A DNA stretch of 64,000 bases from an uncultured Gemmatimonadales bacterium (GCA_963793305.1 CAWBZV010000003.1:1280001-1344000); one strand, 5' to 3'. Shown: positions 14,263 through 22,320, counted from the first letter of the stretch. The notes: generated by a model from the letters alone, not told the origin. Numbers and translations are program-made.

Positions 14263-15885
14263 GTGCGATTCGTTACGTGTGTGTTTGTCGTCGCTGCCGT
14301 AACGGCTTGCGGCAGTTCCAACAGCACCTCCGGCCCCCAGGCGCACGGCAATTGTTCGCCGGCCTCGGCCACGCTCGCCGTCTATCAAGGCGCGTCATTC
14401 AACTGCGCCGGCGGAACAGGGATCACCCTGAACGGCAGCAACGCCACCTATCTCGTCGTCCCGCAGTTCGCCGTCGGCGACGTTGCCTACACCACGAACA
14501 CGTTCCAGATCGAGCGATCCGGCTCGGCTTCCGCCGCCGCGCAGATGGTTGCCGCGACCGCGCGATTCGCGCGTACGCCGTACGCTGGTCATAACCTGCG
14601 CCAGGCCAAGTTTGATGGGATGTTGCGCGCGCGAGGGCGCCGACTGGCCGCCGCGCGCGCGGGCATATCCGCTCAAATCGCCAAGCAAACGCTTCCCAAT
14701 AGCCGGACGTTCTGGGTGTTCGCCGATACGCTGGCGGAGACGTACAAGCAGATCACGGCCACCCTGGTCTATGATGGCGACAGCGTGGCCGTCTATCTCG
14801 ACAACGCCTCGCCACCGGGATTCTCGGGGCAGCAGCTCACAGAGTTCGGCACGCTGGATGACCAGGTGCTCTATCGGATCGTGGTCAACACGTTCGCGCG
14901 GCCCACGGATATCGACAACAACGGCCACGTGATCATGCTGCTGACGCCGGCCGTCAACGCGCTGACACCGGCGCCTGACTGCTCGACCGAAGGGTTCGTC
15001 GCCGGCTACTTCGACCCCAACGATCTCACGCCCTCGGCCCCGAACTCGAACGCTGGCGAAATCTTCTACGGGATCGTGCCCGACCCGAACGGCGCCGCGC
15101 ACAGTTGCGCACACTCGGTCGACGACGTTTTCTCGATCATTCCCGGGACGTTCATGCACGAGCTGCAGCACATGATCTCGTATGGGCAGCACGTGCTGAT
15201 TCACGGCGCTCAACCGGAAGAAGGCTGGCTCGACGAGGGGATGAGCATTGTCTCGACCGAGCTCGGTGGCCTGCATTACGACTCGTTGTACCAGGCGACC
15301 GGGAATACGGCCTACGCGGACTCGGCCCCACCGTACGTCGACGAGCAGTTCAACGACTCGTACAATTATCTCCAGAATCCCGACACGGCGTCCCTGACGC
15401 TGCACACCGACGCCGATTGCTGCCTCGAATGGCGCGGCGGCGATTGGCTCATGCTGCGGTATATCGGCGACCAGAAAGGCCAGGCCATCTACCACACGAT
15501 GGAGACGAGCACCAACATCGGGACGGCCAACATTGCGGCCGCTTCCGGCGAGTCGTTTCCGACGATCTTCGGCACGTTCGGCGTCGCGGCGTACACCGAC
15601 AGCCTGCCCGGTCACACGCGGGACTCGATTCCGGCGCAGTACAAGTTCACGACCTGGAATTTCCGCACGGTCTACGAGAACAACGTCGGGCCGAACTATC
15701 CCATCCAACCCATCGCGCTCTCGCCGAGCGCGTCGACGTCCGGGAGGATGGTGCCGGGAACAAGTGCGTACTACACGATCACGACGCCAGCTGGTGCGAG
15801 TTCTGTGACGATTGTGTTCGGAACATTGAGCGGGGCGTTCTCTTCCAGCCTCAACCCGCAGGTGCTAGTCTTCAGGACACAATGA
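14263..15885 (+). CDS. Lipoprotein zinc metallopeptidase (M30/hyicolysin-like)
   Basis: Lipobox VTAC; TDIDNNGHVIMLLT, GYF, HELQHMI...WLDEGMS (HExxH...E). Confidence 0.75.
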   Translation: MRFVTCVFVVAAVTACGSSNSTSGPQAHGNCSPASATLAVYQGASFNCAGGTGITLNGSNATYLVVPQFAVGDVAYTTNTFQIERSGSASAAAQMVAATARFARTPYAGHNLRQAKFDGMLRARGRRLAAARAGISAQIAKQTLPNSRTFWVFADTLAETYKQITATLVYDGDSVAVYLDNASPPGFSGQQLTEFGTLDDQVLYRIVVNTFARPTDIDNNGHVIMLLTPAVNALTPAPDCSTEGFVAGYFDPNDLTPSAPNSNAGEIFYGIVPDPNGAAHSCAHSVDDVFSIIPGTFMHELQHMISYGQHVLIHGAQPEEGWLDEGMSIVSTELGGLHYDSLYQATGNTAYADSAPPYVDEQFNDSYNYLQNPDTASLTLHTDADCCLEWRGGDWLMLRYIGDQKGQAIYHTMETSTNIGTANIAAASGESFPTIFGTFGVAAYTDSLPGHTRDSIPAQYKFTTWNFRTVYENNVGPNYPIQPIALSPSASTSGRMVPGTSAYYTITTPAGASSVTIVFGTLSGAFSSSLNPQVLVFRTQ

Positions 15886-15895
15886 TCCTGGCACT

Positions 15896-16270
15896 ATGAT
15901 CTGGCGACGGCTGGGCGCGCTCTTCGTCGGTCTCGCGTTTGCGTTCGCGACGACCGAGCCGCTCGGCCATCATCATTGTCCTGTGCACGACGGCATTGTG
16001 TCGGACATGGACGCGATGCCGGGGCACCACATGCCCGCGCCGAGCCATTCGCAGACGCCGGAGCACTCGCACCAATGCACGTGTCTTGGCGCATCGTGCT
16101 GCGCGGTCGCGATCACGACGCCTTCTGATCGTCTTGTTGCTCTCCCGGTCGTACCGGTCACGATCGTTCGCATTGCCGCCGTCGCGCGAAGCGCCGACGA
16201 GCGGCCCATGTCCCATGAGGACGTCCTCCTCCCTCCGCCGATAGGCCCGCCCGAGTCGCTCCCAGTCTGA
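15896..16270 (+). CDS. His/Cys-rich DUF2946-like leader protein upstream of a TBDR
   Basis: N-terminal hydrophobic helix, HHHCPVH, HSHQCTCLGASCC, C-terminal PPPIGPP; 40 nt before the TBDR. Confidence 0.7.
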   Translation: MIWRRLGALFVGLAFAFATTEPLGHHHCPVHDGIVSDMDAMPGHHMPAPSHSQTPEHSHQCTCLGASCCAVAITTPSDRLVALPVVPVTIVRIAAVARSADERPMSHEDVLLPPPIGPPESLPV

Positions 16271-16310
16271 TCTGATCTTCTTTTTTCCTTGACTAGGGAG
16301 CACCACCACA

Positions 16311-18422
16311 ATGCTAGTTCGTCTGTTCGCGCTCGCTGCGGCGTGCGCGTTGTTGCCATCCATCGCTGAGTCGCAACAGGATACGACGCATCGCAAGCCC
16401 GACTCGACGGCGACGCCGAGCCCGGCGCGACTCCGCGCGATCACGATCACCACCACGCCCGTCGAGCGCTCCGAGCCGCTTACGGTCATCACCGTCAACC
16501 AACAACAGCTCTCGATGTCCCCGGCAAACTCGCCGTGGGAGCTTCTGCGCGAGACCGCCGGTCTCGAAGCGCATGAGCAGGGCCAGGGCCCAGGATTCGC
16601 CTCCGACATGTCGGTGCGAGGGTTCAGCTCGGACCACTCCACCGATATCGCGCTCTATATCGACGGTGTCCCGATCAACGAACCGGTGAACGGGCACGCC
16701 GAGGGCTACAACGACCTGAATTTGCTCTTTCCCGATATCGTCACCGGTATCGACGTCGTCCACGGCCCGACGAGCGCGCTCTACGGCAATTTCGCGTTCT
16801 CCGGAGCCGTGAACGTCCGCACACTGGACCGCTACGATGGCTATCAGCTCGAGGCCACCGGTGGCTCGTTCGGGAATGGCGGCGGGTCGGCGATCATCGG
16901 CTTCAACGATCCGCACGCGGGCGGCGTCTTCGCCATCCAAGGCCTTCGCGAGGATGGCTGGCGCGCGCACTCCGAGAACCAGTACGGCCACGTGCACTCT
17001 CAGGTCTTCGTCGACCTGAGCACGCGCACGCACCTGCATGCGGGCGTGGACGCGTATCTCACGTCCTACGACTCACCGGGATTCCTGGACTCCACGCGGT
17101 ACAACTCCCGCACATACAACTTCGTCTCCAATTTCGGCGACGGCGGCTACAAGCGGCACGCGATGGAGCACATGAGCCTCCAGACGTTCCTGCGTCCCGA
17201 CTTGCAATGGCGCTCCACGGTCTACGCGACCCAAGGCACTTGGAATTTCTGGCTGAGCACTCCGCCGGGCCTCGGCGGGTTGACCGAAGGGACGGGGGCC
17301 GAGACTCACGAGTACAACGGCCGATATGGGTTCGGCGCGAATTCGGCGCTGACCTTCGCCCGGCACGGCGTGGATATCACGCTGGGCGCCGAGATCCGAT
17401 ACGACTGGTCGCACTACGGCAACTGGGCGGAAAGCTCGACGGGATTCCGGCAAGACTCGGCGCCGCTGATCCTGGCCGAGCCGGCACGGCAGACGTCAGG
17501 AGGGTTGTATCTCCAGAGCGGCTTCGACGTGTCGAAATACGCACGCATCGATCTCGGCGGGCGAGTCGACCAGCTCTCGAGCTCCGTCCGCCAACCCCAA
17601 TCGGATTCGACCGGCGCGCTGATCGTGAATCAGCTCTACGATTCGCAGCACAGCAAAGGGGTCTTCTCTCCGAAAGTTGGCCTGCTGATCAAGCCGTTCG
17701 TCGACGTGGGCGAGCCCGGTCTCGGTCTATTTGTGAACGTCTCGCGCGGATTCCGGCAGACCGATGGCATCATCACCGACCCGACGTTGCCGTTCATCTT
17801 CGTCTGGGACTACGAGGCCGGCATCAAGTTCGAGCACGGGCCGTTCGGCATCGATGCATCGCTCTTTCGGATGGACGTGAATAACGAGCAGTCGTTCGAT
17901 CCGGTCTTGCAGCGCTCGATCGGTGGCGGCGAGAGCCGCCGCAACGGCCTGGACGTCCAGGCGCACGCTCGGATCATCCGCGGCATCACCGCGACGACCG
18001 ATTTCACCATTTTGCACGCGTTCTACACGCATTTCGTCGATCCCGGCCTGATCGCCGCGGGGGATACGACGAAAGGCGGCCGGGACTCGGCGACCTTCAC
18101 CGGCTATCCGATTTACAACACGTCCAAGTACGTCGGCTCGGCCGCGATCGACGCGAATATTCCCGGCCAGATCTGGACCGCGCGGATCGGCACGACGTTC
18201 AATGGTCCGTATACGCCGTTCGAGGAGAGGGGCATACTGCGGCCAGGGTATGCACTACTCAATGTCGAGGGTGGCGTGCGTGTCTATCACGGGACCACAC
18301 TCCTCCTCGGCGTCCGCAATCTCGTGAATACGCCGTACCGTGAGCTCGAGTCCGGTGGACAGGTCACACCGGGGCAGTCGCAGACGTTCTACGCGACGGT
18401 CAGGTACGATGGGGCTTGGTGA
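16311..18422 (+). CDS. TonB-dependent receptor (probably metal uptake)
   Basis: Signal peptide, plug VRGFSSDHSTDIALYIDGVPIN...HAEGY, GPTSALYG, FSPKVG, C-terminal RNLVNTPY...FYATVRY. Confidence 0.9.
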   Translation: MLVRLFALAAACALLPSIAESQQDTTHRKPDSTATPSPARLRAITITTTPVERSEPLTVITVNQQQLSMSPANSPWELLRETAGLEAHEQGQGPGFASDMSVRGFSSDHSTDIALYIDGVPINEPVNGHAEGYNDLNLLFPDIVTGIDVVHGPTSALYGNFAFSGAVNVRTLDRYDGYQLEATGGSFGNGGGSAIIGFNDPHAGGVFAIQGLREDGWRAHSENQYGHVHSQVFVDLSTRTHLHAGVDAYLTSYDSPGFLDSTRYNSRTYNFVSNFGDGGYKRHAMEHMSLQTFLRPDLQWRSTVYATQGTWNFWLSTPPGLGGLTEGTGAETHEYNGRYGFGANSALTFARHGVDITLGAEIRYDWSHYGNWAESSTGFRQDSAPLILAEPARQTSGGLYLQSGFDVSKYARIDLGGRVDQLSSSVRQPQSDSTGALIVNQLYDSQHSKGVFSPKVGLLIKPFVDVGEPGLGLFVNVSRGFRQTDGIITDPTLPFIFVWDYEAGIKFEHGPFGIDASLFRMDVNNEQSFDPVLQRSIGGGESRRNGLDVQAHARIIRGITATTDFTILHAFYTHFVDPGLIAAGDTTKGGRDSATFTGYPIYNTSKYVGSAAIDANIPGQIWTARIGTTFNGPYTPFEERGILRPGYALLNVEGGVRVYHGTTLLLGVRNLVNTPYRELESGGQVTPGQSQTFYATVRYDGAW

Positions 18423-21952: not shown

Positions 21953-22231
21953 TTATCTCAAGTAGCTGCGAATGATATCCACGAGCTGCTCGGCAGCCTG
22001 ATGCTCGTGGGAGTCGGGCTCCGAGTCCGGCGGCAGGACGTGATACCGCACGTGATCCTCGAGAATCTCGGCCATAAGCGCGTTGATCGCGCCCCGGCAC
22101 GCGGCGAGCGTGTGCAGAGCCCGCTCGCAGTCGATGTCCTCGGCCAAGAGCTCCTCGACGGCCCCGACCTGACCCCGTATGCGCTTGATGCGATTGATGA
22201 GCTTCTGCTTCTCGCGCACGGTGTGCGACAT
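21953..22231 (-). CDS. RcnR/FrmR/CsoR family metal/formaldehyde-sensing repressor
   Basis: MSHTVREKQKLINRIKRIRGQV...DCERALH...RGAINALM...EDHVRYHV. Confidence 0.92.
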   Translation of the reverse strand: MSHTVREKQKLINRIKRIRGQVGAVEELLAEDIDCERALHTLAACRGAINALMAEILEDHVRYHVLPPDSEPDSHEHQAAEQLVDIIRSYLR

Positions 22232-22248
22232 GTGGGCCATGTCGAATG

Positions 22249-22269
22249 GTATACCATGGAAGGGTATAC
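22249..22269. promoter_or_regulatory. Inverted-repeat operator for the RcnR/CsoR-family repressor
   Basis: GTATACC-atggaag-GGTATAC perfect 7-bp arms just upstream of the repressor; resembles the family TAC...GTA operators. Confidence 0.7.
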
Positions 22270-22320
22270 GGCTAGGCATTTGGGGACGACCCTGGCACCC
22301 CTAATGCGTTAGGAGACGGC

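Follow-up and report, generated by a model that had tools for sequence, protein, structure and literature searches.

A putative metal-sensing ribosome-arrest leader with an arginine-less proline tail upstream of a TonB-dependent receptor in an uncultured Gemmatimonadales bacterium

The analyzed stretch of DNA, hereafter the window, comprises 64,000 nucleotides (nt) of the genome of an uncultured Gemmatimonadales bacterium (GCA_963793305.1, CAWBZV010000003.1:1280001-1344000), and positions are counted from its first letter. A small open reading frame (ORF) of 124 aa, called the leader below, is located on the plus strand at 15896-16270. It is followed at 16311-18422 (+) by a gene encoding a TonB-dependent receptor (TBDR, 703 aa), and the distance from the leader stop to the receptor start is 40 nt. 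A first-pass annotation of the sequence had proposed that the ORF is a metal-responsive ribosome-arrest leader similar to CruR of Bordetella, and its description of the locus was confirmed: the ORF has a membrane-type N-terminus (predicted to be targeting), a His/Met linker and a Cys cluster, and both the pyrimidine tract at 16271-16290 and the TBDR 40 nt downstream are present. The tract contains 18 pyrimidines in 20 bases (13 T and 5 C) and is U-rich rather than C-rich.

The N-terminus of the leader is basic and then hydrophobic, and residues 1-19 (15896-15952, +) were predicted to be an export signal or membrane anchor. In an AlphaFold model (102 sequences, predicted template modeling score 0.29), a helix at residues 2-19 was the sole fold predicted. 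Further on, the protein contains the sequence HHHCPVHDG with the first Cys motif, C-P-x-H (C28-H31; 15977-15988, +), which was recognized by family conservation and whose position is analogous to that of the semi-conserved Cys of CruR. After the His/Met linker comes CTCLGASCC, in which the cluster C61-x-C63-x4-C68-C69 (16076-16102, +) is a predicted metal site, judging by conservation and spacing; the usual family form is CxCxxxC(C). The predicted arrest motif, LLPPPIGPP, was found by conservation at residues 111-119 (16226-16252, +) with Ile at the position of Arg in the RAPP motif, and P118 (16247-16249, +) is the predicted P-site codon by analogy with the CruR toeprint (PMC12992588). The first-pass annotation had recognized this motif but placed it at the C-terminus, overlooking the five residues ESLPV that form the actual end after PP. 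An HMM (hidden Markov model) scan gave no Pfam match for the leader protein, and its best NCBIfam match, CopL_fam (NF033807; E 0.0012, 19.5 bits), was under the 40-bit cut-off.

A word-indexed search yielded 28 close homologues from 49 candidates. In these, C61, C63, C68, G117 and P118 are invariant, and indels are mostly confined to the His-rich linker. A profile search revealed 307 cluster representatives (clusters at 50% identity) at E<=0.001. Since the homologues keep the Cys residues, G117 and P118 despite the linker indels and since the profile search found so many relatives, sequence comparison indicates that the ORF is more than a chance one. In an alignment of 102 sequences, C63, P113 and P118 are invariant, and C28, H31 and C61 are at least 90% conserved. 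Motifs were counted in the best 150 of the 307 representatives: the first Cys motif, C[PA]xH, was present in 126, and P-x-x-x-[GA]-P-x within the last 25 residues in 135, the remaining 15 having truncated or variant tails. The family tail pattern can be written as P-[FPY]-[APS]-[NILT]-[GA]-P-P, with the invariant prolines about 2-6 residues from the stop in the relatives. The IGPP ending to which the first-pass annotation drew attention as an Arg-less motif does occur, but as one variant (23 of the 135) among several, the commonest being NGPP (52), followed by LGPP (20), TAPP (13) and VGPP (7). Arg was found at the RAPP position in none of the 135 relatives with the tail motif. The invariant Pro three residues before x-[GA]-P-P and the preferred Phe, Pro or Tyr after that Pro are candidates for replacing Arg.

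Conservation of the Cys residues and of GPP across homologues, which the first-pass annotation had left to be checked, was thus found, and it is accompanied by a fixed distance. The spacing from the last Cys of CxCx3-4C to the tail motif is 45-47 residues in 110 of 127 relatives (46-47 in the window leader). The linker that separates the first Cys motif from the Cys cluster is far less uniform, with 23 to 85 residues. No named family was matched over threshold in Pfam, NCBIfam or Atlas. Pfam DUF2946 (PF11162) gave weak matches in 3 of the 28 members (best E 0.029) and none over the gathering cut-off for the window protein, and no DUF2946 match was found in the genome itself. CopL (NF033807) was weakly matched in 10 of the 28 members (best E 6e-4), all far under 40 bits. 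In Atlas, the relatives fall into unnamed clusters, one of them with 12% DUF2946. A narrow leader profile matched 36 of the 401 genomes of the phylum sample.

Two independent checks of the architecture were added because the family profile itself contained the tail motif. In the motif-only check, the genome collection was searched with a DNA pattern representing the eight codons of the tail; at least 121 stretches were matched, with 80 named among the matches listed, to which the following counts refer. In the 27 loci labeled Gemmatimonadota, 24 of 28 matches form the end of a small ORF that has its Cys cluster where the spacing predicts it, and the four misses are one read-through, one contig end and two without an in-frame Cys. 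Leaders were also present in 4 of 7 unclassified loci. No convincing leader was found in the 46 loci of other named taxa, where L099 alone passed a loose rule, without CxC. In the receptor-only check, the ORFs upstream of the 29 best receptor loci were tested by rule, and a Cys-rich PP-ending ORF was found in 25. Such a leader is also present at L199 and L201, beyond the distance cut-off of the rule; L217 is interrupted by a contig end, and L220 has the tail but no in-frame Cys. Note that in three of the 25 loci (L209, L218 and L222) the same receptor subfamily stands behind a different leader type with CxC and a P-x-[TS]-P-P-P tail, which suggests that leaders may be interchangeable before this receptor subfamily. 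The leader family appears to be a large unannotated Gemmatimonadota branch with a phylum-typical Arg-less motif; the locus labels and the Atlas clusters also point to Gemmatimonadota as the phylum of the window.

The region between leader and receptor was analyzed at the RNA level. In the predicted fold of 16200-16340, both the minimum free energy and the centroid structure pair the last codons of the leader, S121-V124 (16258-16267, +), with 16291-16301 (+) at a pairing probability of 1.00. The first arm acts as an anti-Shine-Dalgarno (anti-SD) sequence in this model, and the GGGAG at 16296-16300, resembling a Shine-Dalgarno (SD) site and belonging to the receptor, is buried in the second. The 23-nt predicted loop (16268-16290, +) contains the leader stop codon and the U-rich pyrimidine tract. 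Opening the receptor ribosome-binding site (RBS) was computed to cost 14.6 kcal/mol, and 7.4 kcal/mol when a ribosome footprint on PP was masked in the fold; with the footprint shifted back by 11 codons the value was 14.0 kcal/mol. The tract was also considered as a conserved element and was ruled out as such: it is the most variable part of the hairpin among close relatives, and distant relatives have GC-rich intergenic regions of 39-196 nt, often about 100 nt in the family.

Covariation between the two arms was evaluated on 65 loci, which remained from 101 leader rows after removal of 17 near-duplicates and 19 rows without a callable start. The tail window interacts with its own SD window at -15.3 kcal/mol and with swapped partners at -12.2 kcal/mol (z -9.1, n=65), and five control window pairs gave z from -1.1 to -2.8. 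A replicate on 24 receptor-selected, previously unused loci gave z -4.3, with controls from -1.0 to +1.1. In addition, the rare codon CCT encodes the first Pro of PP in 38 of the 65 leaders, compared with 30 of the 369 prolines elsewhere in the leaders and 32 of the 385 [GA]PP sites in the genome. The sequence CCT-CC is itself an anti-SD sequence; in the window leader, PP is encoded by CCG-CCC and the anti-SD is supplied by the L122-P123 codons. Both the covariation and the CCT bias are explained by SD masking. The last leader codons are predicted to mask the receptor RBS, and the evidence points to SD masking by a hairpin, with the pyrimidine tract as its loop, as the output of the family.

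The receptor, the predicted target of the leader, belongs to an uncharacterized subfamily. It contains the Pfam domains PF07715 (Plug) and PF00593 (beta-barrel), was under every NCBIfam cut-off in the HMM scan and gave only weak plug-level matches in a PDB sequence search, which provided no clue to the substrate. Its orthologues were found in 84 of 301 genomes of the order; this tally, and no other claim here, counts G157, a genome marked unpublished. In the phylum sample, the next gene after the leader is a TBDR in 24 of 26 scanned loci (three further loci were left out), and the genes after the receptor include Sco with PCuAC, CopC/CopD with DUF1775 and four BNR-repeat proteins. After the motif-selected leaders, the next gene encodes a TBDR in 17 of 28 cases, MbnP in two and a PCuAC-cytochrome c in one, the remaining eight having no family assignment. 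Among 16 scanned loci of receptor orthologues, the genes after the receptor include CopC (twice) and Sco. The 61 upstream neighbors are mostly unrelated housekeeping genes, with one CtaG, one CopC (behind a second leader) and one NicO nickel transporter among them. The first-pass annotation had listed Cu, Ni, Co and Zn as possible signals. The neighbor genes narrow this list to copper first, with a single neighbor for nickel; copper is likely the sensed metal, as a best guess, because copper-related neighbors recur (MbnP, PCuAC, Sco, CopC, CopD and CtaG), though most loci show no metal gene beside the receptor.

The leader was compared with known regulatory peptides. CruR (Bp2923) of Bordetella pertussis, a DUF2946 protein (PF11162), is the leader of the cruR-bfrG-bp2921 operon (PMC9426467), and its arrest was demonstrated in PMC12992588. 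BfrG, the TBDR of that operon, is copper-repressed. The Cys-to-motif spacing of CruR is 45 residues, conserved within 1-2, and an insertion of five impairs regulation (PMC9426467). The leader resembles CruR as a small exported-type ORF before a TBDR, with a semi-conserved early Cys, copper-related neighbors and a C-terminal x-[GA]-P-P that follows the Cys motif at about 45 residues, and no fold is predicted beyond the N-terminal helix, as reported for CruR. Like the CruR class in general, it lies directly upstream of a TBDR or copper-homeostasis genes; arrest relieved by copper and termination by Rho are further traits of that class. The conserved Cys, the GPP-type tail, the fixed spacing and the downstream TBDR support the CruR-type architecture proposed in the first-pass annotation. 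However, Arg is absent from the tail, CxCxxxxCC in the window and CxCxxxC(C) in most relatives replace the CxxC of CruR, DUF2946 is not matched over the cut-off by the window leader, the predicted output is SD masking instead of Rho, and the intergenic region measures 40 nt instead of 162 nt. The leader would work like CruR and CutF but is not a DUF2946 member by HMM, RAPP or CxxC.

CutF of Rhodobacter capsulatus, encoded in cutFOG, has the tail PEPEGPPPRL (bioRxiv 10.1101/2025.02.05.636593; also PMC8456105 and PMC9973294). It shares with the leader an Arg-less proline tail (PEPEGPPP compared with PPPIGPP), a CxxxC-containing site, a signal sequence and a stem-loop over the SD of the next gene (the latter two being predicted here), as well as a 40-nt intergenic region. 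In contrast, CutF is induced by copper and controls an oxidase with a detoxifying role, its stem-loop is placed by the authors in the intergenic region whereas the anti-SD arm here lies in coding codons, its spacing to xGPP is 38 residues (C73 to EGPP, computed from positions) compared with 45-47 here, and the tail P-[FPY]-[APS]-[NILT]-[GA]-P-P is distinct. The CutF-like class was defined by a length under 150 aa, PP within the last 15 residues and a same-strand neighbor within 1000 nt (PMC9973294); the leader has 124 aa, PP at 118-119 of 124 and its neighbor at 40 nt. The class also calls for a Sec signal peptide predicted by SignalP, for which the basic and hydrophobic helix at residues 2-19 is the candidate. 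The leader has a central Cys/His motif as a predicted site, and an SD-masking stem-loop is predicted in about half to two-thirds of the loci. By these rules, the leader fits the CutF-like class, and the 29 clusters published in PMC9973294 may contain members of this family; no match for it was found in three supplementary text files. CopL, which acts in cis on a downstream copper gene and provides the best library match (under the cut-off), was also placed among the CutF-like proteins (PMC9973294); it precedes a copper oxidase, whereas a TBDR mostly follows here.

Exposure of the next gene's RBS by a stalled ribosome is known from secM-secA (PMC10951233) and was proposed for CutF (PMC9973294). 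The SecM and RQH / uA_LPPP peptides resemble the leader in this exposure and in non-Arg first residues (PMC10951233, PMC10987492); they differ in preceding sec/yidC genes and monitoring secretion, and no fixed-distance Cys cluster is described for them in the accessible portions of these papers. Leaders with HAPP, QAPP, TGPP and LPPP were already known (PMC10987492), and together with the PEPEGPPPRL of CutF they are precedents for an Arg-less tail. No description of this particular motif or of Gemmatimonadota leaders was found in the literature searched, most subscription journals being outside the reach of the search.

All these characteristics allow us to assume, as the reading that is on balance probable, that the 124-aa ORF is a metal-sensing ribosome-arrest leader, that the paused ribosome uncovers the predicted masked RBS of the receptor and that copper is the likely signal. 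The nascent chain would be targeted to the membrane, and the ribosome would pause when P118 occupies the P site and P119 the A site (register from the CruR toeprint, PMC12992588). In this position it would cover about 16258-16263 of the anti-SD arm and permit translation of the receptor, while the Cys cluster, 45-47 residues back, would have just left the exit tunnel or be inside the translocon. On binding metal, the chain would fold or be pulled, which would free the pause; the hairpin would re-form, and the importer would be shut off under plentiful metal. The least secure part of this proposal is the sign, with the receptor on under copper scarcity; it is favored because the targets are mostly importers and BfrG is copper-repressed.

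Several points weigh against this proposal. Stalling, metal response and sign are predictions only; no RNA data set with this sequence appeared among the listed sequencing runs, which counts neither for nor against them. The genome encodes elongation factor P (EF-P), a factor able in principle to relieve PPP and GPP. Arrest in CruR, ApdA and ApdP requires Arg (PMC12992588, PMC9426467, PMC10951233), and the Arg-less tail of CutF alone gave no strong stalling (PMC9973294). Given EF-P and the importance of Arg in RAPP arrest, the pause need not be a strong one. On the RNA side, the stability of the 141-nt window fragment was no better than that of shuffles (z -0.30) and is uninformative, starts were hand-set for 15 of the 65 covariation loci, one control pair reached -2.8, and the loci are related, so that the z values suggest more independence than there is. 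Not every locus has the hairpin: SD-tail pairing with P>0.5 was found at only 31 of the 65 loci and 17 of the 24 replicate loci, and a drop of 3 kcal or more in the RBS opening cost at 24 of the 65 and 11 of the 24. As for the metal, the sequence gives no assignment of the receptor substrate, neither the window operon nor the vicinity of most receptor orthologues contains a copper gene, and the paralogous leader of the genome, described below, precedes a DJ-1/YHS protein and not a TBDR. The only nickel or cobalt hint is the NicO nickel transporter (L049, 2919-3929, +), whose gene immediately precedes a leader followed by this receptor type.

The same leader and hairpin could also operate with the opposite sign, as proposed for CutF: metal would prolong the pause and the downstream gene would be on with metal. 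The Arg-less proline tail, the CxxxC and the stem-loop in a 40-bp intergenic region of CutF speak for this, Sco, PCuAC and the DJ-1/YHS protein could be wanted as targets when copper is available, and the RNA covariation data are silent on sign. We nevertheless consider it unlikely, given that the targets are mostly outer-membrane importers, that BfrG, the one tested TBDR case, is copper-repressed and that the spacing fits CruR rather than CutF.

A further possibility, transcription attenuation of the CruR type, in which Rho would load on the C/pyrimidine-rich stretch and would be blocked by a stalled ribosome, had been adopted by the first-pass annotation by analogy. The spacing equals that of CruR, the family intergenic regions are often about 100 nt long, and translational masking could itself provoke Rho polarity downstream. 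The 3' half of the leader is somewhat C-rich (72 C, 55 G), but so is the 5' coding region of the receptor (73 C, 53 G), and the tract is U-rich, only 20 nt long and not kept in distant relatives. The covarying pairing between leader codons and SD (z -9.1; replicate z -4.3) points instead to an anti-SD hairpin with the tract as loop, and masking accounts for the covariation and the CCT bias. In addition, no intrinsic terminator was found on the plus strand. Attenuation by Rho is therefore improbable.

It is also very improbable that the ORF encodes an ordinary small secreted metal-binding protein with plain translational coupling, in which any finishing ribosome opens the SD and no regulated pause occurs. 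A terminating ribosome would indeed melt 16258-16267, the protein is rich in His, Met and Cys, and the leader ORF is itself coupled to the upstream gene in the window. However, AlphaFold predicted no folded domain, the distance from the Cys cluster to PP is constant while the linker before the cluster varies freely, the invariant prolines lie about 2-6 residues from the stop, and the same receptor is sometimes found behind the different PP-ending leader type (L209, L218, L222). Least credible is a leader monitoring secretion or disulfide formation, in which the cysteines would pair in the periplasm and the folding would pull the chain free: the predicted export signal, the several Cys residues, DsbA-like genes adjoining two loci on the far side of the receptor and RAPP leaders before DsbA and thioredoxin genes (PMC12992588) are compatible with it, but the recurrent copper-specific neighbors and the conserved His beside the Cys argue against it.

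The experimentally studied metal-sensing arrest leaders found in the literature searched are CruR and CutF, which have opposite signs and different outputs. With the present family come hundreds more natural variants (307 clusters at 50% identity) that carry a different tail and bear on whether Arg is required for regulated arrest and on the features that set the sign; surveys keyed on RAPP/RGPP, such as that in PMC12992588, would miss them. The leader also gives a functional handle, likely copper, on an uncharacterized TonB receptor subfamily. The principle is already published, and what is gained is breadth of mechanism rather than a system of a new kind; the Arg-less motif typical of the phylum and the anti-SD embedded in codons are additions open to testing. 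A bolder version is possible but doubtful: the tail P-[FPY]-[APS]-[NILT]-[GA]-P-P would be a distinct EF-P-resistant arrest chemistry, in which Arg is replaced by upstream Pro/aromatic contacts tuned to Gemmatimonadota ribosomes and selection would act on each of the proline codons in two roles, stall site and anti-SD. The copper-off switch, joining the sensing geometry of CruR with a SecM-type RNA output, would then be a main copper-import regulator of the phylum.

Upstream of the leader, a lipoprotein-like ORF of 540 aa (14263-15885, +) without a Pfam or NCBIfam match precedes it in the close clade. It contains an HExxH motif, and the product is presumably a metallopeptidase. A five-codon mini-ORF (15882-15899, +), a predicted coupling relay, overlaps both its stop and the leader start. 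The relay is kept at five codons in five close relatives (L032-L035 and L040), while L037-L039 have a direct gene overlap; from these overlaps, the leader in the window clade is predicted to be coupled to the 540-aa gene directly or through the relay. A promoter and terminator scan revealed one promoter-like site at chance level, in addition to the lack of plus-strand intrinsic terminators mentioned above. As regards a first place in the operon, another trait of the CruR class, the genes upstream of family leaders are mostly unrelated, while the window leader is coupled to its upstream gene. A -10-like TAnnnT was found 4-8 nt before the leader start in 32 of 57 family loci, compared with 0-3 in control intervals, and not in the window leader; most leaders of the family thus look leaderless. 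Leaderless starts as a special feature of the family were ruled out, as the same -10 spacing occurs in 220 of 1377 roughly called genes of the genome; in this rough gene set, Shine-Dalgarno starts number 195 and so seem about equally common.

Other leaders were found in this and related genomes. The paralogous leader (G000:C10:24178-24540; L001 5179-5541) ends in LPPPLGPP and precedes a twin-arginine-type DJ-1/PfpI-YHS protein, a pairing that recurs in L041. Two leader-like ORFs of other types are also present in this genome. The one at G000:C2:362165-362488 (-) has CxxC, ends in RAPP and precedes an outer-membrane-efflux-like protein; the one at G000:C5:860033-860401 (+) ends in PETPPP and precedes a Met/His-rich protein. 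In L055 and L071, two divergent leaders stand back to back, one before a TBDR and one, with a HAPP tail, before CopC.

Downstream of the receptor, a CsoR/RcnR-type metal-sensitive repressor gene (PF02583) is located 3.5 kb away at 21953-22279 (-). A lone phage tail-tube-like gene (PF06841; 18400-18723, -) is convergent with the receptor gene, with a 23-nt overlap of the 3' ends. Its product gave sub-threshold matches to TIGR02241 and CIS5, and a similar arrangement was found in L033 and L034.

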